Source of the DNA: Bacilli bacterium
Lineage (GTDB): Bacteria; Bacillota_I; Bacilli_A; RFN20; CAG-826
Assembly: GCA_024408305.1 (NCBI GenBank)
Contig: JAKSVD010000002.1
Coordinates: 1 to 32,284 of the forward strand
Direction of reading: 5' to 3'
Length of the DNA: 32,284 nucleotides
Shown here: in pieces, positions 1 through 21,762 of the stretch
Numbering within the stretch: the stretch's first letter is position 1
Layout of the letters: the number at the start of each line of letters is the position of its first letter
The notes under the pieces: model-generated
Told to the model about the DNA's origin: nothing
What the model saw: the letters and a program-made list of their open reading frames with translations, nothing else
Database searches by the model: none
Position numbers and translations under genes: made by a program

Positions 1-747
1 TGCCTGAGCGTCTGTAACTTCAAGCCACATAACAAATGTAATGCGTCTTGATTCGCCTGCTTTGAGTTCAGAACCTGTTCTATAGAAGACTGTCTCGTCA
101 TCCTGGAACTGAGTTGCATATCCACCGAAGATTGCATTTGTATCGTCTAATCCGACATATGCATCGTAGTTTTCTTTGCCGTTTTCATCATAATGTGACT
201 TCACTTCTTTTTTGGCATAAATGTCATAAGCGTGTTCGTCTGATGTTGCAGCGTTATCGAAATATTTGACTCTTAATAAGTCAGCTAAATCATAGTTGAC
301 GTTAGATGGCTTTGTTGAGTCATCGATAAAGAATTTGGTGTTGTAGATTGCGTCTGTCTTTCCGAGGTTCTTAACGAAGAAGGTATATTTAAAGAAGTAC
401 ATTCCTGTAACGTTACCATCACCATCAGTTCTGTCACCAACCTGGCCATTGGATTCCTTTGAGTCAATGTAGCTATCCTCATTGTGATCCATCATGTGCG
501 CATACTGGTAAGGTGCATATTCAGGTGTAGCGTTAAGGGACATGAAAGTAGTTGAATCGTTCTCTTCCATTGCACTTAATAAGCCAAGAGTGACACCGTG
601 GTTTTCCATCTTAACTGTGAAATTACCAATGCGTCTTCCTAACATTGCAAGGATGATTAAAGCGACAGCACCTAATGTGCCAACGCCTCCAGCAATTGCG
701 GCGATCTTCTTTCTTCTCTTCTTTTTTACGTACGCTAAATCAATCAT
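1..747 (-). CDS. Membrane-anchored secreted/surface protein, N-terminal 249 codons only (C-terminus runs off the left edge); distant paralog of the 1084..2019 product
   Basis: Absent from the ORF track because it has no in-window stop. The minus strand from ATG 747..745 is open to position 1 (MIDLAYVKKKRRKKIAAIAGGVGTLGAVALIILAML...SELKAGESRRITFVMWLEVTDAQA). It has a basic N-region and one hydrophobic helix. 'LKAGE..ITFVMWLEVTD' aligns with 'LKADE..VHFVAWFEGSD' of the neighbouring gene. Riboswitch copy 1 lies upstream. Confidence 0.75.
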   Translation of the reverse strand, partial: MIDLAYVKKKRRKKIAAIAGGVGTLGAVALIILAMLGRRIGNFTVKMENHGVTLGLLSAMEENDSTTFMSLNATPEYAPYQYAHMMDHNEDSYIDSKESNGQVGDRTDGDGNVTGMYFFKYTFFVKNLGKTDAIYNTKFFIDDSTKPSNVNYDLADLLRVKYFDNAATSDEHAYDIYAKKEVKSHYDENGKENYDAYVGLDDTNAIFGGYATQFQDDETVFYRTGSELKAGESRRITFVMWLEVTDAQA

Positions 748-815: not shown

Positions 816-904
816 AGCAATTAGAGTGTCCCGTCCAAGACTCCGGCTCCCTAGTAATTAAAACGCTGCCTATCAAACAACGTTCTACACGGAACCATTG
901 TCAT

Positions 905-978
905 CGGCAGCTGGCTGTCTAAGATCAATAGACCCTTTAGCTTTGCGTCACCAGATTACTCTGGGTTTGCTTTTGAAC
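905..978 (-). promoter_or_regulatory. c-di-GMP-I (GEMM-I) riboswitch aptamer, copy 1
   Basis: Minus strand: GUUCAAAAGCAAACCCAGA-GUAA-UCUGGUGACGCAAAGCUAAAGGGUCUA-UUGAUCU-UAGACAGCCAGCUGCCG. GEMM-I hallmarks are present: GCAAA, a GNRA-capped first hairpin, GACGCAAAGC, a GGGUC second hairpin and AGCC.GCUGCC. It is one of four alignable copies with compensatory stem changes. Confidence 0.88.
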
Positions 979-984
979 ACGAAT

Positions 985-1083: not shown

Positions 1084-2019
1084 TTAGTTGTTTGACCAAG
1101 TAACTGCGTAGAATGATGCAGACAATGTTAATGGATCGAAATCAGCTTCTGTGTTCGAAGCGTTGCTCTGAATACAATTCTTATCAGATCCTTCAAACCA
1201 TGCAACAAAGTGAACTGTTGTGGTTTCATCTGCCTTAAGGCCGGAAGCAAGATGGTACTTGCTGCCTGTAGCACTTGATTTTGTGTCGCTTGATGTATAT
1301 ACAACATTTGCAGCTGCATCGATGAAATCGTCTGCATCATAATTAGCAACAGCAGGTGCTGTTTCACCCATTTTTACGTATTTAGTTGGGATGTTTTCGT
1401 TAGCAGTTGATGCCTGAGGTGCCCAAATTACAGTTTCATCGTCTGAGACCATAGCAAGTCTGAATGCCTTACCGATTTCTGTAGTACCAGATAATTTAGA
1501 TTTTGTGCCAGTTGGATCAAAGAATAACTCATATTCACCAAATGCATCGGAATCGATTGTGAAATCAATGTCCCAAACTGCTGCAAAGCAAACATTATTC
1601 TTTGTTGTTCCATCATTGAAATAACCAGCTGGTGTTTTTGACTCAACCTTGTCTGTAACGTTGATATAGCCATCAACAGCTTTATTAGTTACTGAAGCAA
1701 TGTGATACTCATCATTCATTGCGTCATAGCTGCAATCTCTTAAATATTCGAGATTGAATGTTTTTCCGGAGATGTAGTCACCTGTTTCTCCTTCAGCAGG
1801 AGCGTTGCCATCAGCTGTAACTGTATTAGGAGTTTTGATTCCAGAGATGCCCCTGATATTTGCGACAAGATCACCAGCTGTGTTGATAGCAGCGATATTT
1901 CCAACGCTAATAGCAGCTGACTGTGAAGCTGTGAACCATGCGACGGTTCCTGTAACTGATGCGATTCCTGAAACAGCTAAGAGAGCGATTGCAGGAAGAA
2001 TGATTCTTGATTTTTTCAT
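1084..2019 (-). CDS. Secreted TasA/camelysin-like protein with an AWF-type signal peptide (311 aa from ATG 2019)
   Basis: The track ORF 1084..2094 is trimmed to Met26 (MKKSRIILPAIALLAVSGIASVTGTVAWFTASQ...), which has GAAAGGA 9 nt upstream. 'GTVAWFTAS' resembles the TasA 'GGGTWAAFND' signal junction. The C-terminal 'VHFVAWFEGSDKNCIQ' resembles the D-x-G-N-x-x-Q end of TasA/camelysin-type proteins, as I recall it. Confidence 0.8.
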   Translation of the reverse strand: MKKSRIILPAIALLAVSGIASVTGTVAWFTASQSAAISVGNIAAINTAGDLVANIRGISGIKTPNTVTADGNAPAEGETGDYISGKTFNLEYLRDCSYDAMNDEYHIASVTNKAVDGYINVTDKVESKTPAGYFNDGTTKNNVCFAAVWDIDFTIDSDAFGEYELFFDPTGTKSKLSGTTEIGKAFRLAMVSDDETVIWAPQASTANENIPTKYVKMGETAPAVANYDADDFIDAAANVVYTSSDTKSSATGSKYHLASGLKADETTTVHFVAWFEGSDKNCIQSNASNTEADFDPLTLSASFYAVTWSNN

Positions 2020-2248: not shown

Positions 2249-2276
2249 AAAAGAAAAGGAAGGTTTGTGCCTTCCT
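2249..2276 (-). terminator. Rho-independent terminator of the 2283..2648 gene
   Basis: Minus strand GGAAGG-CACAAA-CCUUCC followed by UUUUCUUUU, immediately after the stop. Confidence 0.8.
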
Positions 2277-2282
2277 GTAGTT

Positions 2283-2648
2283 TTATTCGCCCTTCTGTAG
2301 GTCCTTCATTAACTCTGCTCTGAGTTTAGCTTTTTCTTCCTCAGAGAGATCGTTTAATGCTACCTTCTTCTTCTCATTTGCTTTCTTTGCGTATGTGATG
2401 AGCACCCATATGTTGACGATGAATAATGCTAACAACGGGAGTACAACTACAAGCAAGAATACATTTGGGTTCTGTTGGAAGTATCCAATGAATCCTGGAG
2501 CATATCCATTAACAATAATCTCATATTCATCTTTTGGCATGGTCACAATCATGACGATTGAAACAACCAAAAAGAACAGTGTCAACGCAATGTCAGCACC
2601 GAACAGTGTTCCATAAAGTACTTTTTTAGATGTTGGTAGATCTTTCAT
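2283..2648 (-). CDS. Small membrane protein (2-3 TM helices, charged coiled C-tail), function unknown
   Basis: 121-aa ORF with ATG preceded by GAGG. It has hydrophobic stretches (LFGADIALTLFFLVVSIVMIV, FLLVVVLPLLALFIVNIWVLI) and a Lys/Glu-rich tail. Confidence 0.7.
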   Translation of the reverse strand: MKDLPTSKKVLYGTLFGADIALTLFFLVVSIVMIVTMPKDEYEIIVNGYAPGFIGYFQQNPNVFLLVVVLPLLALFIVNIWVLITYAKKANEKKKVALNDLSEEEKAKLRAELMKDLQKGE

Positions 2649-2752: not shown

Positions 2753-5700
2753 TTAAATCAAAAACGTGTCACCCTGAGCAATACTAGCTAACTCACCGTT
2801 AATATAAATGTGGAAATTGCCGTCAACACTAAGCACCTTTACATTAACAGATTCGCTCTCGCCAGAAATGTTCCAGACTAAGTTATATCCATCGAGCGAC
2901 TTGTAATATGCTCCTTCGAAAGAATCATCATCTACAACCGTCACCTCAAAATATAGCGATACAGTAGTAGGGTCAAGATACTTGTATCTTAATGATAGAG
3001 CACTATTCCCGCCAGAAAGTGTAACGAAATCTGTAGAATTAGCCCTGGTCTCAAAATATATACGTTCATCATTTGTTATCGATGAACTGATGTCATTTCC
3101 ATTCTCGTCATTCCTAGTCATTTCTATAGTATCAACGCCCTGCGTTCGTATAATATGCGTCTCTGCCATTGTAGTAGTGTTGACCGCAATAATATGCGTT
3201 CTGCGTATTAAAGTTTCTCTTGCGACCACGTCGTCATCTAGGAGGTTAGAATTTTTGTCGCGCAAAGAGGTGGATTCGTCGATATAACCTATAGAAATAC
3301 CAGTTGTAGATGAAAAGTTTGCGGTAGCATTCGTACCGTCTATTTGCAACAATACTGTGCCGCTAAAGGATGGAGCAACAGCAATTGCGATAATAGAATT
3401 TGTGTCATCCACTTCTCCACCTGGCGCAGCCAAAGCCACACCGTATGGATACACATATGTCTTACTTACGGTCTTGATCTCCTCATGAATAATGGAGTAA
3501 TTAATCTTTTGGGCGTTTGCGGCAATATCAAGATAGAGCAAATATGCTCCAGTGCCACCATCAACAGATCCCAAAGCATATTCACCAAGATTCATAGGAA
3601 TTTCAAAATAATACATGTATTTTGTTGTGGATAAATCGCTTCCTTGATTTTTAATCCATGACGTCTTAAAAATTGAGGAATAAGTACTTGGGATTGAAGA
3701 CGGAGTGTTCAGTGATGCCCCTATTGTTTTATCCGCATTAATTACATATCCGATGGAATAAGAGTCGTCAGAATATTGGTAAATGTACGAGTGCCTAGGA
3801 TCATTGTCCCCAAAAATTTCTTTAATTTCCTTGATCTCAACTATATTTTCACTCGAATCCCTCACTATATCATGCAAAGAGAAAAAACTGTTATTGCCAG
3901 AAAAATATGTCCCTGCAAAAAAGTTTATGAACCCCTTCTCTTTCAAATTGAAATCAATGCAGTCAGCCGGTAACTGATAATTACGATGAGGTTCTTCCTT
4001 GTTAACTCTTGCATATTGCGCTGTGACAAGATTGTTCATACTAATGCTTGAATTCATAAAATGCAATCCGTATACATAGGTACCGTCGGTAGACATTACC
4101 TTTCTTAAGGCTTCTTTTGAATCATTATACTTTTCAAAGGTGTTATTGGATGCGATTACATGCAAGCCCCCATCATCAACAGTATAAATAGAACGTATAT
4201 TGCCGTTTCGATATGATGTAGTGTTAATATTATCCGATATCTCATATCGTGAAACACGTATGTCCCCCGTTCTCAAAGGAAACATAAATCTATCCGGAAC
4301 GTCATGGCTACCAGCTACTACGTACCCTGTATTCGCTTCATGGACTTCAAAATTATTATCAGAAACTGTTCTCAAAGGAAAATATGTGACATTATTGCCT
4401 GTATAATCGACATAATCGTCACTAAATGACACACCCATGGAACGATTAAAACTTTGTAGAGATAGCGTAGCCTCGTTCGCCCTTGGTGTCCAGTTATTGT
4501 TTGTGCCGCTTAAATAAACAGTTTTGCCTTCAACTAAAGTTGTCACATTATTTGTTCCAATACTCCACGTATTCATCGGCATAGTTGAAACTACAAAACT
4601 GTAATTAGTAGTATTAGATCCAGTGTTTCTAACGTTTAAAAAATAGGTGATATTGCCAGCGACGGTATAAAGATGATTTTTACCATCAAGAGCCCAATAT
4701 GTGTTAGCCGTGGTGCTTGATGTAACGCCGTTTCGAGCGTTGTTAATATTAAGATAATAATTCCTGTTGTTGTTAGTTATATAAAAGCGATACGCAGTGG
4801 TCTGATCAGTAGATTGTGTTGTCCTCGTAACATGAGTTCCGCCCGATAAATAAATATACTGCGGATTTTGAATTGTGTTGCTCTCGGAAGCGTTGGCAAA
4901 GACGAAAGAGCCATATTTTTCGTTGTAGTTGGTTTTATTATTAAGATATGTCCAAATGTAATTGTTAGTCGAATTAGTGCTAGTAATAGTCGTACCAGAA
5001 ACATAATCGTTTCGAGCATACACATAATTAGTAGTTCTTGTTGCGGAACTAGAACGAATTGAATTTAGACGACTGTACATAGACTTCATATTAATCGAGC
5101 CGCCCCAAGCACTTTCACTTCCCTCGTTGCCACTATAAACATCGTCCTCGGTAGAAAGAGTTGGAGTATATATTGTAGTGTCAGACACGTTTAAAACGTT
5201 ACGATAAGGAGCGGTGCAATAACCAACTAACGTATAGTCACTTAAATTTGTGGTGACAGAACTAAGAGGTGCCGTGCCAGATGCGACCGATATAGTAGAT
5301 CCCGAAACTCCAATGCCAGATAAAGAGCCATTAACATAACCAGCGGCAACACCCAAAAGAGATTGATTCAGTTGCGTCTCTACAAAACAATCCTTTAAAT
5401 AAACATTAGATACAGAAGGGGCGAATGATGAATACGTTCCAGCTCCATCATAATCCCCAATAACGCCAAACATACCGACAATATTTACGCCTGACAGTCC
5501 CTCAACGCTTAATGGTTTTTTCTCGATAAAACCAGGACCAAGTTTATTAGTAATTCTAAGATTTTTGATTGTGGATCCATTTCCATTAAAAACACCAATG
5601 AATGGATTGTTGGTTGTCCCAATAGGCGGAAGAACAAGGCCTGACATGTCGATTTCACAATCTTCTTCAAGTTCAAAATAATACTGTTTTATCTGTTGTG

Positions 5701-5953
5701 TCGTTTCATCTTTTTTGTTGAATTCCCCAAGATACTGAAGCCACGCAAGATTATATAAATGAATCGGAGAGTTTATAACATAAGGTTTTTCATCACTACC
5801 ATCTCCGCTATGGAAATAAGATGCTGCAGTATAGCCATAACCGTCGTCAAAATCCACTTCGCCTGAACTTAAAAACCACGCAAACGAGGCGGAAATGAAT
5901 GTCAAAAATGACGAAATCACAACTGAGGTTTTAAGAAATAGTTTTCTATCCAT
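2753..5953 (-). CDS. Giant secreted/surface protein L1 (1066 aa): AWF-type signal peptide, GLUG/beta-helix-like N-module, Asn/Thr-rich body; putative adhesin
   Basis: Long ORF with GAGGGG 7 nt upstream of the ATG. The start overlaps the stop of the small gene by 8 nt (AAATGGATAG). N-terminus is MDRKLFLKTSVVISSFLTFISASFAWFLSS. 'YFHSGDGSDEKPYVINSPIHLYNL...LPPIG...PFIGVFNGNGSTIKNLRI' is paralogous to L2 and to the 21763..23853 lipoprotein. Confidence 0.9.
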   Translation of the reverse strand: MDRKLFLKTSVVISSFLTFISASFAWFLSSGEVDFDDGYGYTAASYFHSGDGSDEKPYVINSPIHLYNLAWLQYLGEFNKKDETTQQIKQYYFELEEDCEIDMSGLVLPPIGTTNNPFIGVFNGNGSTIKNLRITNKLGPGFIEKKPLSVEGLSGVNIVGMFGVIGDYDGAGTYSSFAPSVSNVYLKDCFVETQLNQSLLGVAAGYVNGSLSGIGVSGSTISVASGTAPLSSVTTNLSDYTLVGYCTAPYRNVLNVSDTTIYTPTLSTEDDVYSGNEGSESAWGGSINMKSMYSRLNSIRSSSATRTTNYVYARNDYVSGTTITSTNSTNNYIWTYLNNKTNYNEKYGSFVFANASESNTIQNPQYIYLSGGTHVTRTTQSTDQTTAYRFYITNNNRNYYLNINNARNGVTSSTTANTYWALDGKNHLYTVAGNITYFLNVRNTGSNTTNYSFVVSTMPMNTWSIGTNNVTTLVEGKTVYLSGTNNNWTPRANEATLSLQSFNRSMGVSFSDDYVDYTGNNVTYFPLRTVSDNNFEVHEANTGYVVAGSHDVPDRFMFPLRTGDIRVSRYEISDNINTTSYRNGNIRSIYTVDDGGLHVIASNNTFEKYNDSKEALRKVMSTDGTYVYGLHFMNSSISMNNLVTAQYARVNKEEPHRNYQLPADCIDFNLKEKGFINFFAGTYFSGNNSFFSLHDIVRDSSENIVEIKEIKEIFGDNDPRHSYIYQYSDDSYSIGYVINADKTIGASLNTPSSIPSTYSSIFKTSWIKNQGSDLSTTKYMYYFEIPMNLGEYALGSVDGGTGAYLLYLDIAANAQKINYSIIHEEIKTVSKTYVYPYGVALAAPGGEVDDTNSIIAIAVAPSFSGTVLLQIDGTNATANFSSTTGISIGYIDESTSLRDKNSNLLDDDVVARETLIRRTHIIAVNTTTMAETHIIRTQGVDTIEMTRNDENGNDISSSITNDERIYFETRANSTDFVTLSGGNSALSLRYKYLDPTTVSLYFEVTVVDDDSFEGAYYKSLDGYNLVWNISGESESVNVKVLSVDGNFHIYINGELASIAQGDTFLI

Positions 5954-6719
5954 TTGTCAACCCCTCAATCTTGTTTATATAAAAACAGAAATCAGCTGAA
6001 TATGTAATGTATGAATGACCATCAACAACGGTCATATCATCCCCAACACCAGAAGTAATATCGTTGCCTAAATTTGCAGAATAAATTGTCTCTATCGAAA
6101 TCTCGTCATAATCGATGACAACATATACCCTGTCAGTGTTTGAAAACTGACATACCCTCGCTTTTTTATCGTCCACTAAATCCGTATAATCAGCATTTAT
6201 AAAATTAGTCTTTCTTGATGAATAGGTAGTTAAATCAACGGAATAAAATGTTTCATTGATTGTTAGCTCCGTATTATTTAAACCATAAAAACAGACAATA
6301 CTTGAAAGTGAATTTCCGGTTGCATGCAAGGAATAAATAGGATTGTCGTTTTCGTCTCTTTCAACAATACCTAAATATGAGTCTGAATACGTTTCAGCAG
6401 TAACCGAAATACTCATCTCGCTTTCCAAAACAATCTCCATCAGCAGTTGGTAACCTGAATTGATGATTGAATAGTAACCTAGTGTCTTACTGCTAATTGG
6501 GGTTTTGTCAAAATAATACTGTGTTTTCGTACCACTCATCTTTGAGCTGTATGGGTAGAAATTGACTTCCTTTACAACCTGATCCTTGATAACGGCAATG
6601 TTGCCAGCATCACCATCAGTAATCGGCCTAGTAGTAAACCAAGCAAGCGTAACTAAAGATAAGCCAACAACATTGGCCATCGTGAGTGAGATTAATGATA
6701 CTAGCTTGCCTGTTTTCAT
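5946..6719 (-). CDS. Small secreted protein S1 (257 aa) with an AWF-type signal peptide; candidate fibre/anchor subunit
   Basis: The track ORF 5946..6743 begins at a TTG that lies inside the riboswitch aptamer. I trimmed it to ATG 6719 (MKTGKLVSLISLTMANVVGLSLVTLAWFTTRPITDGDAGNIAVI...). It is paralogous to S2 (9966..10754). Confidence 0.85.
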   Translation of the reverse strand: MKTGKLVSLISLTMANVVGLSLVTLAWFTTRPITDGDAGNIAVIKDQVVKEVNFYPYSSKMSGTKTQYYFDKTPISSKTLGYYSIINSGYQLLMEIVLESEMSISVTAETYSDSYLGIVERDENDNPIYSLHATGNSLSSIVCFYGLNNTELTINETFYSVDLTTYSSRKTNFINADYTDLVDDKKARVCQFSNTDRVYVVIDYDEISIETIYSANLGNDITSGVGDDMTVVDGHSYITYSADFCFYINKIEGLTNG

Positions 6720-6730
6720 TCTTACTGATT

Positions 6731-6801
6731 CGGCAGCTGGCAATCCTTCTAGGACCCTAATAGCTTTGCGTCACTAGATTACTCTAGTTTTGCTTTTAAC
6801 G
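6731..6801 (-). promoter_or_regulatory. c-di-GMP-I (GEMM-I) riboswitch aptamer, copy 2
   Basis: Minus strand: GUUAAAAGCAAAACUAGA-GUAA-UCUAGUGACGCAAAGCUAUUAGGGUCCU-AGA-AGGAUUGCCAGCUGCCG. The first stem is CUAGA/UCUAG here versus CCAGA/UCUGG in copies 1 and 3, a compensatory change. The aptamer 3' end lies 11 nt from ATG 6719. Confidence 0.88.
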
Positions 6802-6806
6802 TGAAT

Positions 6807-6835
6807 AATGTAGCGTATGTGTGCGTAAAAGGCAA
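6807..6835 (-). promoter_or_regulatory. Promoter driving riboswitch copy 2
   Basis: Minus strand TTGCCT-17 nt-TACATT, about 9 nt upstream of AAAAGCAAA. Confidence 0.5.
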
Positions 6836-6900
6836 GAAAAACAAAAATACTGAAAATCGTTCTAATAACTGAAAATTAGATATCTTTTTTGTAATTTTGT

Positions 6901-9900
6901 TCATTGTATTGACGAAGCTGGTATTTCCCTTGTTGATGAGGCTTCAGTGACTTCAACATAATCATTCAAATTACTGGTTTTGATAAATACTTGGTAAAAA
7001 CCACTGTAATAGTTATATATCTTCAACGTTGTATTCGTATCTGCATAGCAATCAATCAAATATTTTCCAATATAAGTTGAACTTTCCCCTTCTTCAAATG
7101 CAACATATGAAACTTTAATTTTATATTGGAACGAAACAGCTAGTGTTTCAAAGAAAAAGTTTAATATAGTATTGTCAATAGTTTGAGGGTAATCTCTGTA
7201 TCCGACCGTACCAAAAGTTCCACCAAAACCGTCCTTTGCCTTGAATTCAAAGTCAATATTTGTAACCCAAGTTTGATATCCGTTGTTTGATTGCCCCCCA
7301 AGGCACATAACATATGTATCAATTTTAAGCTGGTCCTCACGAGACATTTCTGTCGATCCATCTGATGCGTATCTTCCAAGAATTCTGCCCTCAGAATCTA
7401 GTGCACAGTAAGAGGCCTTTTTGATATATTCTTCGTTTAAATCTAGGGATATTGTGTTGGTTAATTGGATGATGCCATTACCATCAGATTCCGTACCCGT
7501 TTCCTTAATTTTCATGAATCCATCGCGTTTTTTGAATGTAGGTTCAACGATATCACTTGAGTAGCCAAGAATCTTTGCTTGAACATAGGTAAATGCAATT
7601 TTTCCCATCGCATCATCTCTCGAATCTAGAGGGTTTGCAGTGTTTTTAATAAATAGAACGATGGAGCTAGGACATCTTTCGTTTGCATAAAAATGGTCGC
7701 CAACATCTGTTTCATTGATCAAAGACACTTTATCACCAGCCGATCTTTCGCTATCTAACCCAATGATAGCAATTTGCTGCCCAAAAAGTTCTTGATAATA
7801 AAACTGGGCGCCGTCACCAACAACATCGATATTTTTAGAACGATAGCCTGACTCATAAACAATGGTTTCCTCGCCAATAAAGTAATTAACATCGTCTGCA
7901 CCTTGAATTGGATCTCTGCTAATTAATGACAATCTCCATAGAGGGTTACCGCTATTAATATCAACCGAATATGTAAAGTTTGTATATTTTATGTCGGTTT
8001 CATCAATAACAACAAAATCAGCACTTTCAACGCCGTCAAACACTTCTTTGTACAACAACTTTGACTCAAAACTTCTTACGTCAACGTGAGGCATTAATCT
8101 ATCTTTGTTTTCTTCAAAATCAAATTTATGTGTCAAGAAATTCTCTTCTGGAATATCATTATCGATTTCTTTGAATTCTGTTTTGTTTTGTACATTAGTT
8201 TTGACGGATGGAACAACAAGACCGGAATTTACGTCATTTACAAGAACTTCGACCTGATCCAATGTGTTGTTGTCGGAATTATAATTACCATAAACAAATG
8301 TGTGCGTATATGATGTTCCCCAGGCCGTGTACTGGTAACTGATATAAATCGAAAACTTATGGTACCCTTCTTGCAATTTCCTTTGAACAGGTTGAACTGT
8401 AAATGTGCATTCATAATATCTACCAGCCAAACTGGCTCCAGCAGATAAAGCCTCGCTTTTATACGTTATATCTAGTGGGATTTTTTTTTTATTGTTAAAT
8501 ATATAACCCGTAATATTCAAATCAGGTGCAAACCATTTTCTCTCTTGAGTCGTGAAGTTTGGTATTTTACATAGGACATCAAAATCATAGTTGTCATAGC
8601 CATTAATAACTTGTCTGTCGTAAGATTCTCCATAAAAATAGCAATTGTAATTTGGATCATCTGGATCATTGTTTTTGTAATAATATGCTGTCGGGGCTTC
8701 TTGTTTTGTCTCTGGGTTTACTATAAGTCCCTCGCCCGAACCGATCATGGATTCCGTAACATAACTTGGCTGAGTAGCCGGCATTTTAATTGCACCGTCA
8801 TGAGAGTGATCATCGCCATCCAATTCGATGTACTCTCTATCTTCGTAGTAAACGTTATAGTCATGTCTGGCCTCTACATATTCTGGCGTAGCATAACCGA
8901 TCGTGGAAAGCGAATAACCGTCCTGAAGGTCATACGTTGTACCAACAACGTTAGAAGAAGGTTTAACTGAACTTGAAAATGGTTCGATAATGTTTTGTGT
9001 TCCAGTCTTTATTTGCCTTTGAACTTTATCGCCATTATCATTGGCTTCCAAATTTTCAGTTTGGCGAACATTTCTAAGTACTAACTGCTGGTCGTTAATT
9101 GAGTCATATGTATTATCGAAATAATTAAAAACAGCCTGAGAGTTTAATGTAAATTGATAGTCATTACCTTGTCCAAACGAGCCTCCCAAAGAATCCTTTG
9201 TAGCCTTTCCGTAATATCCATAATTGTTAATTTGTTTATTCGTGGTAGAACCCATCAAAGTACAATCGTTAACATAGACATTGGTAAAGTTAGAAGCATC
9301 CTCAATGTGGCCTGCAATATACCCAAAATGAACAGCTGAATCATTGTGGAAATGACTTTCTGATGTCGTATATCTTCCATAAGACGTCTCTATCTCAAAA
9401 TTTTTGAAATAAGCATTTGAGCAAGTTCCTTCATCAACATAACCAAAAATACCTATGTCAGAGAAAAATTTATCATCTTTTTTTGCAGATATTTTAAAAC
9501 TTGAAATGGTAATATTGTTGCCGCTAATAACAGAATTGAATGGCAGATCTTCAGAACCTAATGGTGGCAACACTTCAGTTCCAGTACAGTCAAGAACAGT
9601 TGAAACCCCTCCATTAGATGGATCATATTTTCCGTTCGAATAATTATAGACTTGAATCTTGCCGTCTCCATTAATGTCCGCACCAAAAGAGAAATGATAC
9701 TTTTTCTCCGCAAATCCAGGGAGATTATAATGGAGGAGAACCATATTTTCGTAATGTTTTGGTCTGGTAATGGTAAATGGATCATCTTCTGAACCATCTC
9801 CAGAATGGAAATATTTTTGAAGGACGGACCCCGTTAATCCGTCCGCAGGAACATCAATGTTGTCCTGTGAAATGAACCAAGCTGCAGCAAAACCGCTAGA

Positions 9901-9966
9901 AAGCAAAAGCCCAAAAGAACAGATGGATGAGACTATCAATGCAAACTTAGATTTATTAAAAGTCAT
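6901..9966 (-). CDS. Giant secreted/surface protein L2 (1021 aa): AWF-type signal peptide, GLUG/beta-helix-like N-module; putative adhesin
   Basis: Long ORF with GGGGGAGG 7 nt upstream. The start overlaps the S2 stop (TAATG). N-terminus is MTFNKSKFALIVSSICSFGLLLSSGFAAAWFISQD. 'YFHSGDGSEDDPFTITRPKHYENM...LPPLG...PFNSVISGNNITISSFKI' is paralogous to L1. Confidence 0.9.
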   Translation of the reverse strand: MTFNKSKFALIVSSICSFGLLLSSGFAAAWFISQDNIDVPADGLTGSVLQKYFHSGDGSEDDPFTITRPKHYENMVLLHYNLPGFAEKKYHFSFGADINGDGKIQVYNYSNGKYDPSNGGVSTVLDCTGTEVLPPLGSEDLPFNSVISGNNITISSFKISAKKDDKFFSDIGIFGYVDEGTCSNAYFKNFEIETSYGRYTTSESHFHNDSAVHFGYIAGHIEDASNFTNVYVNDCTLMGSTTNKQINNYGYYGKATKDSLGGSFGQGNDYQFTLNSQAVFNYFDNTYDSINDQQLVLRNVRQTENLEANDNGDKVQRQIKTGTQNIIEPFSSSVKPSSNVVGTTYDLQDGYSLSTIGYATPEYVEARHDYNVYYEDREYIELDGDDHSHDGAIKMPATQPSYVTESMIGSGEGLIVNPETKQEAPTAYYYKNNDPDDPNYNCYFYGESYDRQVINGYDNYDFDVLCKIPNFTTQERKWFAPDLNITGYIFNNKKKIPLDITYKSEALSAGASLAGRYYECTFTVQPVQRKLQEGYHKFSIYISYQYTAWGTSYTHTFVYGNYNSDNNTLDQVEVLVNDVNSGLVVPSVKTNVQNKTEFKEIDNDIPEENFLTHKFDFEENKDRLMPHVDVRSFESKLLYKEVFDGVESADFVVIDETDIKYTNFTYSVDINSGNPLWRLSLISRDPIQGADDVNYFIGEETIVYESGYRSKNIDVVGDGAQFYYQELFGQQIAIIGLDSERSAGDKVSLINETDVGDHFYANERCPSSIVLFIKNTANPLDSRDDAMGKIAFTYVQAKILGYSSDIVEPTFKKRDGFMKIKETGTESDGNGIIQLTNTISLDLNEEYIKKASYCALDSEGRILGRYASDGSTEMSREDQLKIDTYVMCLGGQSNNGYQTWVTNIDFEFKAKDGFGGTFGTVGYRDYPQTIDNTILNFFFETLAVSFQYKIKVSYVAFEEGESSTYIGKYLIDCYADTNTTLKIYNYYSGFYQVFIKTSNLNDYVEVTEASSTREIPASSIQ
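8481..8490 (-). repeat. A10 homopolymer inside the L2 coding sequence (T10 on the plus strand)
   Basis: Coding strand AAC AAU AAA AAA AAA AUC (..NNKKKI..). This is the longest homopolymer I found in the window. Confidence 0.9.
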
Positions 9967-10754
9967 TAGTTTGCCTCCCCCGCAAATTCAAAACGCACAA
10001 TATCGCAGTCAAAGGAAATTGCTGTACCTTCTAAATTATCTGCAGTAATTTGTCCGACATCTGAATTGTCAAAATAATAGTCAACTAAAGTTTCATCATA
10101 AAAATATTCAATGTAGAGAACGGTGATTTTATCATCTGCCGTTTCATCTATATCGAGATTTCTCAAATGAATTGTTTTATCGATCGCTTTGGTTCCGACT
10201 CCATCAGACACAGTCACATAGCTAAATGAAGTATCAATAGTGTCGAAGATATCAAATGCAGAATCATAAATTGTCGATGCTGAAGTTTCATCTAATGCAC
10301 CGGCAATAGAGTCGTGTTTCAGGAAGTATTTAAAACCAATGATATTGGACATGTTGTTACACACGTGATCATTAGAATCGGTAAAGTCTCCATTTGAAGG
10401 AATGTCAACATTGAAGGTGGTATCAGAAGATGTGTCACCCTTGGATATAATTTCCATTCTTAAAATCTTGTTATTGTGAACATTTCTATCCTTAATAAAA
10501 GTATCGTATTGAGGAAGCGCAAAACGATCACCGGTCTTTTCTTTATCAACTGCAATTCTTCCCGAACGGTTATCTTCATCGTATTCGTAAAGTTCAAAAT
10601 CAACGTCCAGTGGGTCGTCTGATATCGCAGTAATCTGGCCCATTGAATTATCCGCTCTTTGATTTGCAGTAAACCATGCGAATGTAAGCATGCCTAAACA
10701 AACGACATTCATCGCTAGTAAACTGGACAAGGCTGCTACAACACTCTTTTTCAT
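9966..10754 (-). CDS. Small secreted protein S2 (262 aa) with an AWF-type signal peptide; paralog of S1
   Basis: MKKSVVAALSSLLAMNVVCLGMLTFAWFTANQRADNSMGQITAI... The ATG lies 13 nt downstream of aptamer copy 3. The C-terminal strand 'ITVLYIEYFYDE' corresponds to S1 'RVYVVIDYDE'. Confidence 0.9.
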   Translation of the reverse strand: MKKSVVAALSSLLAMNVVCLGMLTFAWFTANQRADNSMGQITAISDDPLDVDFELYEYDEDNRSGRIAVDKEKTGDRFALPQYDTFIKDRNVHNNKILRMEIISKGDTSSDTTFNVDIPSNGDFTDSNDHVCNNMSNIIGFKYFLKHDSIAGALDETSASTIYDSAFDIFDTIDTSFSYVTVSDGVGTKAIDKTIHLRNLDIDETADDKITVLYIEYFYDETLVDYYFDNSDVGQITADNLEGTAISFDCDIVRFEFAGEAN

Positions 10755-10767
10755 CTTAAGTAATTAC

Positions 10768-10838
10768 CGGCAGCTGGCTATCCAATTTGGACCCTTTTAG
10801 CTTTGCGTCACCAGATTGCTCTGGCTTTGCTTTTTCAC
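10768..10838 (-). promoter_or_regulatory. c-di-GMP-I (GEMM-I) riboswitch aptamer, copy 3
   Basis: Minus strand: GUGAAAAAGCAAAGCCAGA-GCAA-UCUGGUGACGCAAAGCUAAAAGGGUCCA-AAU-UGGAUAGCCAGCUGCCGG. Confidence 0.88.
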
Positions 10839-10842
10839 GCGT

Positions 10843-10871
10843 AGTATATACACGTACATGTGCTATATCAA
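10843..10871 (-). promoter_or_regulatory. Promoter driving riboswitch copy 3
   Basis: Minus strand TTGATA-17 nt-TATACT, 7 nt upstream of AAAAAGCAAA. Confidence 0.5.
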
Positions 10872-10897: not shown

Positions 10898-10984
10898 TAG
10901 AAACGTCCAAAATTATCTTTAATATGCAAAATCTCCACAAATTCGACATATATCAAATAAAAACGAGGCTTCTTAACCTCGTAA

Positions 10985-13429
10985 TTATTTTTTTACAAAT
11001 GGTGTTCCAGGCATCGGTTGAGCCGGTCTTCTGATCAATTTTAAGCACTCGTCCTGAGGGGCAGGCTTGGAATAAATATAGCCCTGAACGTACTGAATTC
11101 CACATATCTTTAAGGTGTCCGCAACAAGCTTTGAATCCACCCTTTCGAAGATGACTCTCTTGCCTAAATCACGGCAAATATCCACTAAATGTCTTAAGAG
11201 CTTTCTAGATTTTTCATCAAGTCCATTTTCGGTTACGAAATAAATGCCATCCATCTTAACAGTATCAAAAGCAACACGTCTTAAGATATCCAAAGATGAA
11301 GGACCCTTGCCAAAGTCATCTAGAGCCACTTTTGCGCCGAGTTTGTGGATATTATCGACTGCTTCTAAAACAGCCTTCTCTGAGCTTAAAAACGCTGCTT
11401 CTGAGAGTTCGAACTCTATTAATGATGGTTCAATTTCATTCTCTTCGAGAATCTTCTTATATTCATCAATCCAATCGGATTTCAAAAGGTGCCTTGATGA
11501 AACGTTAACGGAAATTGGGAGCGGTCTAATTCCACTTCTCTTTTGGTCTACGAGAACGTTGATTGCATTCTTGAATACAAGGATATCAACGTCATTGATA
11601 AGCCCACTCTTTTCAAGCATTGGAATTGTATCAACTGGGGACAATATACCCTTGGTTGGATCGTTCCATCTAAATAGGCCTTCTAAGCCGACCCAGGTAT
11701 TGTTGATGAGGTCTTTCTTTGCCTGATAAACGACTTGGTAATGTCCGTCGAATAACGCCTTCTTGGCATTCTGCTCGAATGCGGATTCATTTAACTCATG
11801 GAGCATCATCTCATCCTTATATTGGACAATGGTGTCGGTTAAATATGTCTTATCTATATGTTGTTGCGCGATATGTGCGCGGGAGATAGCAGCCTGGAAG
11901 TCCGTGATTTCCTTGCCTGGATAATAGACTCCAACTATAACCTCTGCTTTTAGGTCATAATGGACTGAAATATATTGTTCGATTGAGATTTGAATGGATT
12001 TAACTCGACGAACGATTTCTTCATAGCTATCTTCGTGCATTAAAGCGACGAATCTATCGCCATAGAATCTAACCACTACTTCTGAATCATCAACCATTCC
12101 GGCAAGGATAGTCTTATATAATCCAAGGATGAGCATATCGGATTTTTCTTTTCCGATAGTCTCAAGGATGTATTTGTATCTTACGACATTGAATTCGAGA
12201 ACAGCGACGTTACTTCTTCCCTCAACAATCTTTGGTCCATCTATCAAGAATCTCTCGTAGTTGATGGATCCTGTCCACTGATCGATATATTCAGCGTTGA
12301 GGAGCAACACTTTGCGGTGTCCAGACAAAGCGCATGCAAGTGCGAACAAGATGCCGGAAACGAAAAGCAATGCGGTTGTTATAACCATCGTTATGAATAT
12401 TTCGGTGGATGTTGTTGATAACGACGGATTCAAGATAAAGAAACGAGATAGAGCGAAGACCGAGAATGCTAAAAGCGTTGCGGCTCCAAGGGCTGCAAGG
12501 ATTCCCCATTTTGCGCGCTTTGCAGCGATTTCGTCTTTATATAAGCGAGGTTTTGCAATCTTTTTGCGTTCTTCTTCAACTGAAACTCCACCACTATTGG
12601 TGAATTTAGCGACGAGTTTTCCGTCTAAATATGCTTCTTTCTTTGTTTTGCCTTTTGCTAAACGAAGTGACTTATCCGCTCTTTCAAGGAGCAAGGAGAA
12701 TTCCGCTCCTGAATAGGTCATCATAGAAATGCCACAACAGCAGGAAATAACAATATTTTTGTGTCCTGCCTTGACGTTTAACTGCGTTGCAAGAGTCTTT
12801 TTAGCGTATTCGACTAAATCGAGCTCTGTGACGTCATCAATGAAGATAACGAATTCATCTCCACCGAATCTTCCCAAGATTGCATCAGGGGCTATTTCAC
12901 GCAATTTATTGGCAAATCCCCTTAAACATTCATCGCCGATTCTATGTCCGAAGTCATCATTGATCTTTTTGAAGTTGTTGACATCGATTAAAAGGAATCC
13001 ACATTTAGAGAATGGGTCATGCTTTTTGATACGATTGTTAACCGTTCTGATAAAGTGTGATCTAGCAGTTAAGCCAGTTAATGAGTCAACAGAATGGATA
13101 CCGGTGCCCAACGCACGGGAATCGAGTTCAGTAACGATGATTCTCATGATATCTGGGAATTGAGGCATCCAGATAAATGTGAGAATAAGAGCGCCGTTCT
13201 TATCTGTATATGGATACATCGCTACATGGTTCTCTTTAGCGTTTACGAATGACTGGATGACGTGAAATGAGTAATTCTCGTCTAAAGAAGAGAATGGTTC
13301 ACCCGTCATATAGCGGGTAAAGAACGTTTCAAAAGACATCGTGTTATTGCCTCTTATTGAGGATGACACGACGGTCTTTGAGCGGACGTCTATTTCCACT
13401 CGAAGAATTGAATCGCCTTCTTTTGCCAT
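10985..13429 (-). CDS. Bifunctional-type c-di-GMP enzyme (814 aa): N-domain, GGDEF (intact), 2 TM helices, degenerate GGDEF, EAL
   Basis: AAGGAG lies upstream of the ATG. The first GGDEF domain reads 'LIDVNNFKKINDDFGHRIGDECL...RFGGDEFVIF' (GGDEF codons at 12851..12865). Two hydrophobic helices follow (WGILAALGAATLLAFSVFAL, IFITMVITTALLFVSGILFALA). The second GGDEF-like domain has 'RFYGDRFVAL'. EAL-domain motifs are EGLFR (11669..11683), NVS, ELSE, DDFGKG, KMD and QGY. Confidence 0.9.
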   Translation of the reverse strand: MAKEGDSILRVEIDVRSKTVVSSSIRGNNTMSFETFFTRYMTGEPFSSLDENYSFHVIQSFVNAKENHVAMYPYTDKNGALILTFIWMPQFPDIMRIIVTELDSRALGTGIHSVDSLTGLTARSHFIRTVNNRIKKHDPFSKCGFLLIDVNNFKKINDDFGHRIGDECLRGFANKLREIAPDAILGRFGGDEFVIFIDDVTELDLVEYAKKTLATQLNVKAGHKNIVISCCCGISMMTYSGAEFSLLLERADKSLRLAKGKTKKEAYLDGKLVAKFTNSGGVSVEEERKKIAKPRLYKDEIAAKRAKWGILAALGAATLLAFSVFALSRFFILNPSLSTTSTEIFITMVITTALLFVSGILFALACALSGHRKVLLLNAEYIDQWTGSINYERFLIDGPKIVEGRSNVAVLEFNVVRYKYILETIGKEKSDMLILGLYKTILAGMVDDSEVVVRFYGDRFVALMHEDSYEEIVRRVKSIQISIEQYISVHYDLKAEVIVGVYYPGKEITDFQAAISRAHIAQQHIDKTYLTDTIVQYKDEMMLHELNESAFEQNAKKALFDGHYQVVYQAKKDLINNTWVGLEGLFRWNDPTKGILSPVDTIPMLEKSGLINDVDILVFKNAINVLVDQKRSGIRPLPISVNVSSRHLLKSDWIDEYKKILEENEIEPSLIEFELSEAAFLSSEKAVLEAVDNIHKLGAKVALDDFGKGPSSLDILRRVAFDTVKMDGIYFVTENGLDEKSRKLLRHLVDICRDLGKRVIFERVDSKLVADTLKICGIQYVQGYIYSKPAPQDECLKLIRRPAQPMPGTPFVKK

Positions 13430-13487: not shown

Positions 13488-16400
13488 TTATTTTAAGATT
13501 GCCTGCTTTGATGACGCTGTCTTAAGAAGAGACAAGAATTCATCAATGACAAGTGGTTTGAAGAAGTACCAACCTTCAAAGTTGTTGATGCCTTCTTCGT
13601 CGAATACGACGTTGACCTGTTCGCGTCTTTCAATACCAACAAGTGTGACCTTGAAGTTGAATGTCTTTGCAAGAGCAATGAGTGATTTGACTTCGTTGAG
13701 TCTATTTGGGTTGCTATCGATTTCCATGACAAGGGTTCTAGCAAGCTTAACTTCAGTGAATCCGAGCTTAGCAAGCTGTTCGATTGAAATGTCCTTACCT
13801 GTGTAGTTATCGCAGACGAGGCTGATGTTGAGGTCTCTGATCTTGCGTGATGCTTCTCTAATAACTTCGACATTTGCGGCGATATCAGCTTCATTAAGCT
13901 CGAAGTTGATGAATCCCTTAGCGAAGTTGTATTCGAGAATTGCAGCCTGCATATCATTCAAGAACTGGTCATTCTGGAAGTAGATAGAGTCAACGTTGAG
14001 GGAGATTCTATCAAGGAAGCCGGATCTGAAGATTGTAGCGCCGTAAGTCTTATAGAGGTTACCGATCTGCTCGATCATGATGTTTGTGAAGCGACCCATT
14101 GATGAGTGCTTTGATGCGATTGGAATGAATTCGCCTGCATCGAAGAATGAATTGGTGAGTTCATCGTTAAGTCTAAGCAAGACTTCACCACCATTGATAA
14201 CGCCAGAAGCCTTTGAGACGATTGGCTGGATACGGATATCGAAGTTCTTGTTTTCGAAGGCCTTAGCAAGGAGAGAATAAATATATGCTTCTCTATATGC
14301 TGGTCTAACGATGTTAGCGTCGATGAGGTGTAACTGGTTGTCGCCTCTTGTGTTATTTGAATTGAAGTAGACTTCGACGTGTCTTAAGAAGTCGAATGAT
14401 GACGCGAATGTCATTGGATATGAGAAGACACGGTATGACTTCTCGATCTTGAATCCCTGATATTCGTCATTGAATTTATCTTTAAGAGCCTTTTCGACTT
14501 TTTCGATGCTTCTGAAGATATCGGTTCTTGTGATTTCATTTAAGAGGATTGCAATTGTTGATGCGTTATATGAGAAGACCTCATCATGTGTAACGCCTGT
14601 AGAAGCAATGACATCGCCTAATTCTCTTAAGAACTGGTTAGTGACTGGTTCGCCTAAGACGCTGACCATGTTGCGGAAATTAGCGAGGTTCAAGAGAACG
14701 AGGTTACCCTTGAGGTTGTAATTCCACTTATCTGCCATTCTCATAGCAAGTGAATATGGGGTTGCAAGTTTTGTTTCGGAGTCATAACGCTCTCTTGCAA
14801 GGTTTCTTCTATCGGTTGGCTCTAAGAAGAGTGTTGCATCAACCTTGTTTTCTCTGTTTGAGAGAATGGTGTGATATGCATAGTTCTTGTTATCGATAAC
14901 GCATCTCTTCTTCTTGCCGTGGCGGATTGGGCAGTCAGCGCATGGAGCATCTAAACCATAGATTGCCTTATAGCACTTCTCTCCATCTTTGCCCTTTGTT
15001 GCTGAGCATAAGCCACGTGAGTGTGATAAGAGTGTGTATGTATTCTTGTTGATGGTATACATCTGATATGCACTGTAGAGGAGCAATGAATCGAGCTGAG
15101 CGGCTGATCCTTCGATTGTGCCTCTTGAGTGTAATTCCTTTAAGGATGATGCGAATAAGTTAGAGAAGACGACAAGGGATTCTCTTGAATATGCATCAAG
15201 GACTAATTTCTTTGTGAAGTTAACGAAGATCAATGCGGCATAGACCTGTCCATTTGAATAGACGAGTGACATATGGCCTGAAACGATTCCATAGATGTCT
15301 AAGTATTTGCCTAAGTTGGATGTTATGTTCTCTCTATTGAAGAATGTGAGTGATCCATCCTTATCAGCGACTTTAGCGAGTTCTTCGATGATTGCTGCTC
15401 CATCATTTCTCAAAACGATGTGCTTGCCTTCGATTGTGCAGTGATCAGCGATCTGTGAGACCTCACCTGTTGATGAATTCTTTGCTAAGACTGCAACGCC
15501 TTCGAATCCAAGGAAGTCTGAGATTGATGTTGCACAAGCGATGACTTCTTCTCTATATGCTTCAACATTACCCTTCTTGGTGAATGCTGTGTTCATTCTT
15601 TCGATGATTTCGCCGACTGCATTGATTCTCTGTGCCTCTGTTACCAATGCATCCTTATCAAGGCTTCTCTCTGGGAGATAGACGTTGATGTCCTGGCCTC
15701 TTCTTTCAGCGTATCTTAAGTCAGAAACGATTGTTTCAACTGATGAATATGGATAGACAGACATTGAGACCTTTAATGGAAGGACGTCTGTGGACTTCTC
15801 TCCGAATCTTGCGATGGTTGATTTATGGACGACGTATCTTAATTTGCTTTCCACAATTGAGATAGAGTCGATGTTTGACATGAAAGCGATGAATGAATAG
15901 TCGGTATCCTGAGATACGACTGGTGCATTGTCAGCGAAGACTTCATTGATGACGTCAAGTAAGCGAGCCATGTCAGCGTGTGATGGGTTTGCCTCTGTTG
16001 TGTCATAAATGAATGAGACCATAGCGTTTCTAAATGACTTAGAGACATTGACCATTGCAGGGATTGAAGCGAAGAATGATTCCTTAGCAATTGTCTTGCC
16101 GCCGAACGATGGATCCTTCTCTAATCCGATTTCTGACATATCCGCAACAGCAGACATCATGACGATGGTGTTGTATTTGCCGTTGATCTTTGCGATTGCG
16201 TCATTAAGCTGGCTGAATTCTCCTCCAGGTGCGTCTACTGGATATTGCTCTAAGTTGTATTTATTCTTTGAGACCTTATCCATGTTCTCTGCAGTTCTCT
16301 CAAACAATGGCTTCACGACGCCTTGGCGGATTGTCTTGACGTAAAAATACGCTGAGCCTGCAGAAAGACCGATGAACATCAAGGCGAGGATGCCTAATAT

Positions 16401-16599: not shown

Positions 16600-16629
16600 A
16601 TGATAACTGCATTACCAATTAGCGACATT

Positions 16630-16700
16630 CGGTAACTGGCTATCTATTTCTAGACCCTCTAGCTTTGCGTCCCTAGATTGCTCTAGGTTTGCTTTTGGAC
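16630..16700 (-). promoter_or_regulatory. c-di-GMP-I (GEMM-I) riboswitch aptamer, copy 4
   Basis: Minus strand: GUCCAAAAGCAAACCUAGA-GCAA-UCUAGGGACGCAAAGCUAGAGGGUCUA-GAAA-UAGAUAGCCAGUUACCG. Confidence 0.88.
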
Positions 16701-16706
16701 TTTGAT

Positions 16707-18426: not shown

Positions 18427-18492
18427 AGCATACCCTCCTTCACAATATGCTATATTCGACAAATTATATTTGCAATAGGTTATCTTTTATTT

Positions 18493-21761: not shown

Positions 21762-21762
21762 A

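Follow-up and report, generated by a model that had tools for sequence, protein, structure and literature searches.

We analyzed a 32,284-nucleotide stretch of DNA from a Bacilli bacterium (assembly GCA_024408305.1, contig JAKSVD010000002.1, positions 1 to 32,284; hereafter the window), focusing on two diverged cassettes that may specify a surface adhesin or fibre system induced by the second messenger cyclic di-GMP (c-di-GMP). Each cassette consists of a c-di-GMP-I riboswitch, a small gene for a protein of ~260 amino acids (S) and a giant gene for a protein of ~1000 amino acids (L), and the table of open reading frames (ORFs) places every gene of both cassettes on the minus strand. The first comprises S1 (5946..6719; 257 amino acids, ATG start) and its partner L1 (2753..5953; 1066 amino acids), and the second comprises S2 (9966..10754; 262 amino acids) and its partner L2 (6901..9966; 1021 amino acids). 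An alternative TTG start for S1, at 6743, falls within the aptamer. From the coordinates, S1 and L1 overlap by 8 nucleotides (ATGGATAG) and S2 and L2 by 1 nucleotide (TAATG). The S1-L1 operon ends with a gene for a 121-residue membrane protein (2283..2648) and is closed by an intrinsic terminator (2257..2276). Farther along the same strand lie a gene for a 311-residue protein that we call T (1084..2019), which has its own terminator at 1046-1069, and a gene for a membrane-anchored protein, M (1..747), which runs to the contig edge. An initial annotation of this DNA had described the two cassettes and both overlaps, and the ORF table, the coordinates and Rfam agree with it.

That annotation had also assigned a promoter and a c-di-GMP riboswitch to each cassette. 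Using Rfam model RF01051 (c-di-GMP-I; gathering score 35 bits, with a full-length match covering model positions 1-87) and a covariance model of our own, built from 35 Rfam-verified aptamers, we found that both riboswitches are genuine. The S1-L1 aptamer (6729..6804, minus strand) scored 59.2 bits with Rfam and 80.4 bits with our model and ends 10 nucleotides before the S1 AUG; the S2-L2 aptamer (10766..10841, minus strand) scored 52.8 and 77.4 bits, respectively, and ends 11 nucleotides before the S2 AUG. The window holds four such riboswitches rather than the two first reported. The third (903..981, minus strand; Rfam 58.5 bits) precedes M and is followed by a GCUGCC...GGCAGC-UUUU hairpin, which we read by eye as an ON-type terminator and which, having a long loop, was not flagged by our strict terminator screen. 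The fourth (16628..16703, minus strand; Rfam 61.8 bits) is followed by a separate terminator and an AGGAGG Shine-Dalgarno site. Directly upstream of the S2-L2 aptamer is a good sigma-70-like promoter (10843..10871, minus strand; TTGATA-17-TATACT, 10 of 12 matches in our scan). The corresponding site of the S1-L1 cassette (6807..6835, minus strand; TTGCCT-17-TACATT) is weaker: with 8 of 12 matches it lies under the scan threshold and was recognized by eye only. We looked for a terminator between the L2 stop codon and this promoter-like site and found none.

The two cassettes are related but distant. S1 and S2 share 24% identity (E 1e-4), and L1 and L2 share 27% identity across their N-terminal ~300 residues (E 7e-12), including the common module YFHSGDGS...LPP[IL]G noted earlier. 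Because each S/L pair has its own orthologues elsewhere, we conclude that the copies are ancient paralogous modules and not recent duplicates. Tandem riboswitch-S-L duplications recur at four other loci (L024, L034, L035 and L056, in our numbering of related loci).

A scan for L that used one genome per species returned 145 L-encoding stretches; ORFs were called and classified by profile in 89 loci, ~1.4 Mb in all, and our covariance model found 87 aptamers across 90 sources. Nearly all hosts are uncultured gut or rumen lineages of Bacilli (Candidatus Onthovivens, Acholeplasmatales, Anaeroplasma, Erysipelotrichaceae and bins labelled 'Mollicutes'; RF39-like), and Clostridia (Lachnospiraceae, Acetatifactor and Acutalibacteraceae). 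The nearest of these stretches comes from a 'Bacilli bacterium' metagenome-assembled genome from horse faeces (L009), where the order S, L, small membrane protein, T, riboswitch is the same as in the window. L genes with an intact N-terminus number 86. At least 66 of them directly follow a gene for a 245-330-residue protein of the S/T kind, bearing the AWF leader described below, and at least 55 have a riboswitch immediately upstream of S, or of L where S is absent; inspection of the tables adds ~7 to the latter. Rfam confirmed the aptamer in 15 of 15 loci that matched a pattern search of ours for aptamers and in 6 of 11 that did not. The distances from the S stop to the L start fall mostly at -4, -1 and 0 to 8 nucleotides, indicating that the coupling seen in the window as overlaps is conserved. 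Thus both the synteny and the coupling inferred from the window extend strongly to its relatives.

Two observations on this distribution stand somewhat apart. At L001/L002 (8972-9838; UBA1744), an S-L pair is present without a riboswitch and with a gene for an AraC-family regulator upstream, and so seems to have come under the control of a protein regulator instead. Furthermore, L genes occur in bins named Alistipes, Bacteroides uniformis, Prevotellaceae and Faecalibacterium prausnitzii (L048, L061, L058, L064, L073, L078 and L081). All of these bins belong to a single isolate-naming series (H076xx cleanbin) and are most likely mis-binned Firmicutes contigs and not cases of horizontal transfer.

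The relatives also show the sense of the switch. In at least 32 of their 86 aptamers, under strict criteria, the 3' strand AGCCAGYUGCC doubles as the 5' arm of a terminator, whose hairpin and U-run are placed just ahead of the start codon. Because one strand serves both structures, the ligand-bound aptamer and the terminator are mutually exclusive. This is the standard ON arrangement, in which c-di-GMP turns expression on.

All five proteins (both S, both L and T) begin with a leader that ends in an AWF motif (SFAWFLS, TLAWFTT, AAAWFIS, TFAWFTA and TVAWFTA), and in the small proteins it is followed by the G[NQ]I[AT][AV]I segment, as first annotated. Across families, the leader consists of a basic N-region, a hydrophobic segment of ~20 residues and then [TS]-x-A|W-[FY]. 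In this pattern T or S occupies -3, and an aromatic or aliphatic residue -2; A is found at -1 in 78-95% of sequences, varying with the class, and is otherwise replaced by G, S or C; and W at +1 is followed by F or Y at +2. In 21 sequences of the S family the W is invariant and the A and F are each at least 90% conserved, and in an alignment of 78 L sequences the W alone of the motif is invariant. Among the relatives, 114 of 122 T proteins carry the motif, as do 16 of 17 S proteins and 79 of 91 L proteins. In S and T the residues after W-F follow the pattern [TA]-x-N-[RK]-x-V and alternating hydrophobics (WF[TA]xN[RK]xV...I.V), ~25 residues with the look of a beta-strand. The leader satisfies the -3/-1 rule of type I signal peptidases and has the same T-x-A|x-F layout as the experimentally known TasA site, GGGTWA|AFND; the TasA fibre structure 8AUR starts at A28. 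These features support the view that the AWF N-terminus behaves as a dedicated class of signal peptide, and we infer cleavage by a SipW-type peptidase between A and W, which would leave W-F as the mature N-terminus.

Neither the wall-anchor motif LPxTG (searched as LP.[TSA]G) nor HExxH is present in S1, S2, L1, L2 or T, and the earlier statement that there is no LPXTG anchor applies to all five proteins. Three other kinds of export signal or anchor were considered and rejected: a lipobox; a type IV pilin leader, as the conserved motif stands after and not before the hydrophobic helix and there is no GFxxxE; and a sortase-anchored adhesin, given the missing LP.[TSA]G.

The five window proteins gave zero Pfam or NCBIfam matches. 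For the S family, word-indexed searches returned ~20 clusters, and a profile search of 1.8 billion representative sequences returned 487 (clustered at 50% identity, E <=1e-3), all of ~250-280 residues. S is an L-specific partner: of the small proteins encoded next to L, 50 of 69 align to 150 or more of the 259 positions of the S profile, compared with 4 of 63 AWF proteins encoded elsewhere in the loci. Conversely, the motif W-x-E-G-x-D-x-x-C, which characterizes the family of T, is found in 26 of those 63 proteins and in 1 of the 69 adjacent to L. S and T have only their N-terminal ~55 residues in common (hhalign probability 95%). An AlphaFold2 (AF2) model of S1 has a mean predicted local distance difference test score (pLDDT) of 74 and a predicted template modelling score of 0.76, and shows a beta-sandwich-like domain with a low-confidence N-terminus. 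The small protein had first been taken for the polymerising or anchoring subunit. It probably does not polymerise; T, the separate AWF family, is the more likely candidate for the main subunit.

The L family has >340 profile matches (clusters at 90% identity), the 120 listed all having E <=1e-87, with lengths of 1000-1800 residues; its members contain no Pfam domain and are 'hypothetical protein' wherever they are named. The AF2 model of L1 is confident (pLDDT 86): residues 4-28 form a helix, which a disordered linker connects to a body of several all-beta domains. After the linker we distinguish an N-module resembling IgA1 protease and GLUG lipoproteins, then a region that is possibly R-type lectin-like and, towards the C-terminus, a conserved beta region. 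Profile positions 41-134 match Protein Data Bank (PDB) entry 3N6Z, a 'putative immunoglobulin A1 protease' (E 1.2e-5), and positions 378-457 match the R-type lectin SeviL weakly (E 0.013). Residues 50-326 of L1 are 26% identical (E 1e-5) to a lipoprotein encoded in the window at 21763-23853, which itself matches Pfam Glug (PF07581; E 2.6e-6). Neither L1 nor L2 matches this Pfam model at E up to 1. Hence, of the initial assignment of the N-module to the GLUG/beta-helix type, the homology to the GLUG lipoprotein and to 3N6Z remains, and the Glug motif itself does not. L is probably a large adhesin that binds glycans or the host. A role as an HExxH metalloprotease was considered for L and rejected, the motif being absent.

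SipW-type peptidases are found beside these genes in related loci. The relatives' peptidases pass TIGR02228 (archaeal/ER-type signal peptidase I), with the SipW model NF046067 as their best match. Of 81 non-redundant loci, 15 carry a full-length SipW-type gene no more than 10 kb from L, as do 9 of the 31 loci of at least 20 kb. Such proximity would presumably be rare by chance if a genome holds one or two copies. At an Acutalibacteraceae locus (L007), an S-L pair stands back to back with an EAL gene, homologues of M and T, and two signal peptidases, which carry the motifs SDSMAPT, NTHRI and GDAN. When any of peptidase, M, GTPase or the GTPase partner (see below) is counted within 10 kb, 15 of the 31 large loci are positive.

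The 121-residue membrane protein at the end of the S1-L1 operon is a SipW-type homologue that lacks the catalytic domain. It scores 33.7 bits against a full-length SipW-like profile at positions 150-215 of the hidden Markov model and retains both transmembrane ends and the charged C-terminal tail. A homologue occupies the same operon place in L009, and others occur in L025, L033, L036, L037, L042, L055 and L060. Its product looks like a pseudo-peptidase.

M has a transmembrane helix that looks uncleaved, followed by G[NS]FT[VI]; it lacks AWF and shares a C-terminal motif with T (hhalign probability 96.7%). A metagenome scan with M for a leftward extension of the window returned a single distant locus (L089; 32% identity), a contig with the order riboswitch, M, T, T, 504-residue ATPase, 567-residue protein, SipW and EAL. 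In the ATPase we recognised a transmembrane segment, a coiled coil, a Walker A motif (GISGTGKT) and the signature GTANNDDST (NxD). It matches AAA_5 and the PADLOC candidate PDC-M26A (E 5e-41), and its partner matches the McrC-type DUF2357. This GTPase and McrC-like pair is also present in L007, L018, L019, L020, L036, L037, L040, L055 and L075, among others, within clusters of M, T and SipW genes (L089 3170-6387; L007 2450-5186; L055 1-2007; L040 2827-5766 and others). T, M and the McrBC-like pair form the conserved core of the system, with T, and not S, as the probable polymer subunit. Because the window ends inside M, a GTPase pair is not visible in it; to the left, the T genes and the GTPase/McrC-like pair probably continue.

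Taken together, the explanation that we favour, with a probability of roughly 0.55, is a c-di-GMP-induced, SipW-type adhesin or fibre system composed of S, L, T and M. In this model, each cassette would be a c-di-GMP-induced operon in which a promoter and a c-di-GMP-I aptamer precede the translationally coupled S and L genes. S, L, T and their hundreds of homologues would be exported via Sec with the dedicated AWF leader, and a SipW-type (archaeal/ER-type) peptidase would cut between A and W. The mature W-F strand of S and T could then dock the subunits together in the manner of the donor strand of TasA/TapA. M, without the cleavage motif, would remain in the membrane as the base; T proteins would build the shaft; S might act as an L-specific adaptor or nucleator; and L would be the distal adhesin at the tip. 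This architecture and the part given to each protein are drawn by analogy with known fibres. Of the picture proposed at first, the gating by a second messenger, the dedicated SipW-like leader and the adhesive giant subunit survive, and the TasA-like nature of S and the GLUG motif are given up.

A number of results weigh against this explanation. TIGR04088, the model of SipW-type leaders (cut-off 19 bits), gives the positive control TasA 38 bits and T 13.1 bits (E 0.084), below the cut-off, and does not match S1, S2, L1 or L2. Since the model fails on the AWF leader while matching TasA, AWF is an unmodelled leader class; the likeness to SipW-cognate signal peptides thus holds for the layout of the site and for the peptidases nearby in relatives but not for this model. 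Neither sequences nor profiles linked S, T or M to TasA, camelysin or BsaA, and the S1 model did not link S to TasA by fold. Peptidase_M73 (PF12389) and the TasA model NF046066 match none of S1, S2 and T at E up to 1; the BsaA model TIGR04090 matches neither the window proteins nor the T and M relatives tested; and hhalign of S, T and M against TasA gives E >=0.009 and probability <5%, not significant, with the best local pieces, likewise not significant, aligning C-terminal strands. Against Pfam, 21 T homologues gave stray sub-threshold matches only (Peptidase_M73, E 0.078, in 1 of the 21; Arch_flagellin, E 5e-4). Searches of PDB sequences with the S profile and with L1 gave no match. Foldseek searches of the PDB gave the S1 model no significant neighbour (best TM-score ~0.25), and TasA is not among the 50 matches listed of its 662. 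Nor was one found for the L1 model in either the PDB or BFVD (TM <0.1), a whole multidomain model being a poor query. In addition, no catalytic SipW is encoded in the window, and in about half of the large related loci neither a peptidase nor M nor the GTPase pair lies within 10 kb. Lastly, between aptamer and AUG the S1 and S2 leaders contain no terminator and no clear Shine-Dalgarno site, and the alternative pairing predicted for S1 is no better than that of shuffled sequences.

Several of these points would be expected if the AWF helix were an uncleaved signal-anchor, so that S, L and T were type II membrane proteins displayed singly, with no fibre, and S served as a membrane co-receptor or chaperone for L. 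Such an arrangement would suit wall-less, Mollicutes-like hosts, and many hosts are indeed labelled Acholeplasmatales, Anaeroplasma or 'Mollicutes'. The helix at L1 residues 4-28 is modelled as single and continuous, AWF included, and is followed by a flexible linker; the window provides no catalytic SipW, and neither a wall anchor nor a TasA-like fold was detected. However, a plain anchor needs no strict small residues at -3 and -1 before the W, and these suit a signal peptidase. Moreover, SipW-type peptidases are strongly enriched beside AWF genes, and M, the one protein that looks like the uncleaved anchor of the system, is the one without the motif. We therefore consider a signal-anchor doubtful and retain the cleaved leader of the SipW-type fibre model.

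A second question concerns the direction of regulation in the window itself. The sense of regulation for S1 and S2 is taken by analogy with the relatives, because a terminator is absent from these leaders and the S1 pairing is at shuffle level. Because the aptamer abuts the AUG, the switch possibly acts on translation, and we infer that the S1 and S2 leaders are translational ON switches. In the minimum free energy (MFE) fold of S2, codons ~9-15 are paired to the 3' half of the aptamer, with more cross-pairs than in any of 300 codon shuffles. In L009, which encodes an S1 orthologue, a helix of ~15 bp joins the aptamer 3' half to codons 4-10 (MFE z = -2.7), although 43% of shuffles match its cross-pair count; in L025, the 5' P2 strand of the aptamer pairs with the 11 nucleotides that precede the AUG.

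Conversely, c-di-GMP could switch S1-L1 and S2-L2 OFF if the bound aptamer, 10-11 nucleotides from the AUG, sterically blocked the 30S subunit, so that these operons, unlike the terminator-type relatives, were expressed at low c-di-GMP. The lack of a Shine-Dalgarno site or terminator from aptamer to AUG and the S1 pairing at shuffle level are compatible with this, as is the AUG, which is predicted to be unpaired in both folds of S1 and S2. Yet the strand that pairs with early codons in S2 and L009 is the very strand that forms the 5' arm of the terminator in ON-type relatives, the M riboswitch of the window appears, by eye, to have an ON-type terminator, and co-regulated partners would be out of phase. 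Repression by c-di-GMP is thus unlikely, and induction is the sense that we keep for the S-L cassettes.

The clusters in the relatives match CoCoPALM, in that they contain an McrB-like NxD GTPase with a transmembrane segment and coiled coil, a DUF2357 McrC-like protein and SipW-family peptidases (PMC11090510). In the paper that introduced it, CoCoPALM is only named, its description being deferred to a later publication, and Bell et al. read the association as pilus assembly (PMC11090510). We found no paper in the literature on CoCoPALM substrates, on its regulators or on the S-L module. Tentatively, S-L, T and M may be the CoCoPALM substrates, a proposal that we hold at clearly less than even odds: they would form a new kind of surface filament of Gram-positive or Mollicutes-type bacteria, its subunits made with a [TS]xA|WF leader that a SipW-type peptidase removes, and its assembly, retraction or anchoring would be driven by the McrB-like GTPase and McrC-like protein, with every operon ON in c-di-GMP. 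That the cluster is instead an anti-phage or conflict system of the McrBC-derived CoCoPALM kind, in which S, L and T would be released or displayed as effectors (decoys or proteins that mask receptors, for example), is improbable, since the match of the GTPase to PDC-M26A, the DUF2357 of its partner, the occurrence of the pair within M-T-SipW clusters in >10 loci and a HipA-like module nearby in the window are set against c-di-GMP riboswitches and flanking GGDEF/EAL proteins typical of adhesion and biofilm, McrC-like proteins in L089 and L040 that have no Pfam match and no recognised nuclease domain, S-L modules that often have no GTPase pair within 10 kb, and the preference of Bell et al. for pilus assembly. 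If the filament proposal is right, a motor from a restriction system has been repurposed for a pilus gated by a second messenger.

In C. difficile (CD2831/CD3246 and pilA1) and B. thuringiensis (Bc2-cap), high c-di-GMP acts through an aptamer in the leader to turn on the gene for a surface adhesin or pilus, and the products are sortase-anchored or type IV pilins. The cassettes resemble these Firmicutes systems in having the aptamer in the 5' leader ahead of a gene for a probable surface protein. They differ in that LPxTG and a class III leader are both missing, the families are unannotated, and a small and a giant gene are coupled as a pair, often in tandem.

Among SipW-dependent fibres, TasA and TapA of B. 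subtilis share a donor strand, and SinR controls the tapA-sipW-tasA operon (PMC9674648). As there, a SipW-type peptidase dedicated to the system has its gene alongside those of the substrates (here in the relatives), the leader ends in T-x-A|x-F, a mature N-terminal strand is common to two proteins (TasA and TapA there, T and S here; PMC9674648), and the proteins are rich in beta structure and lack a wall anchor. In contrast, no similarity of the AWF proteins to TasA was detectable by sequence, profile or fold, a conserved W-F stands at +1/+2, control is by c-di-GMP riboswitches in place of SinR, and there is a giant L, a membrane-anchored paralogue M and an McrBC-like GTPase pair. The sipW-bsaA-bsaB-bsaC cluster of C. 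perfringens specifies a SipW-dependent polymer for which a donor-strand N-terminus has been proposed (PMC7395162; bioRxiv 10.1101/2024.11.04.621531). It shares with the present system paralogous small subunits and a larger accessory secreted protein (BsaC there, L here), whereas TIGR04090 misses the AWF proteins, BsaC is a von Willebrand factor A protein and L is not, and bsa is under the BsaRS two-component system and temperature, with no riboswitch. The archaeal bundling pili (AbpA) are donor-strand, TasA-like fibres of the SipW-dependent secreted class (PMC9245690), but we detected no homology to them, and they differ in gene content.

Neither the S nor the L family is covered by a Pfam or NCBIfam model or named in any source. 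Even so, in uncultured Bacilli and Clostridia of the gut and rumen, S-L ranks among the genes most consistently placed under c-di-GMP-I riboswitches. Should the favoured explanation be correct, it reveals c-di-GMP targets in these poorly known commensals, defines a SipW-type leader class that current annotation models miss, and supplies CoCoPALM, so far only a name, with concrete candidate substrates and a regulator, through which its function could be tested directly.

The remaining features of the window lie mostly beyond the S2-L2 cassette. A GGDEF-EAL protein with an intact GGDEF motif (10985..13429, minus strand) adjoins the cassettes, with a terminator at 10963-10982. A second protein, with a degenerate GGDEF and an EAL domain (13488..16544, minus strand), lies downstream of the fourth riboswitch. 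This riboswitch and the two GGDEF/EAL genes point to a feedback loop through which c-di-GMP would act locally, next to the cassettes.

Farther on, a gene for a kinase with a HipA_C domain (17557-18462, minus strand) overlaps a downstream gene for a 261-residue protein (16779-17564, minus strand); the pair, which is placed between the c-di-GMP island and the lipoprotein genes, may be toxin-antitoxin-like. Two overlapping genes for lipoproteins follow (19491-21797 and 21763-23853, minus strand), one product having Big_2 domains and the other, mentioned above, a GLUG motif. Finally, ~0.9 kb at 24060-24960 (plus strand) is free of ORFs and has a GC content of 0.50, compared with ~0.40 around it. 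The plus strand folds much better than its shuffles (z = -3.4, with 0 of 20 as good), as the minus strand does not (z = -0.06), and Rfam gave no match for the stretch at E up to 0.1. On the plus strand it closes with a terminator-like hairpin and U-run, and may be an undescribed large structured RNA.

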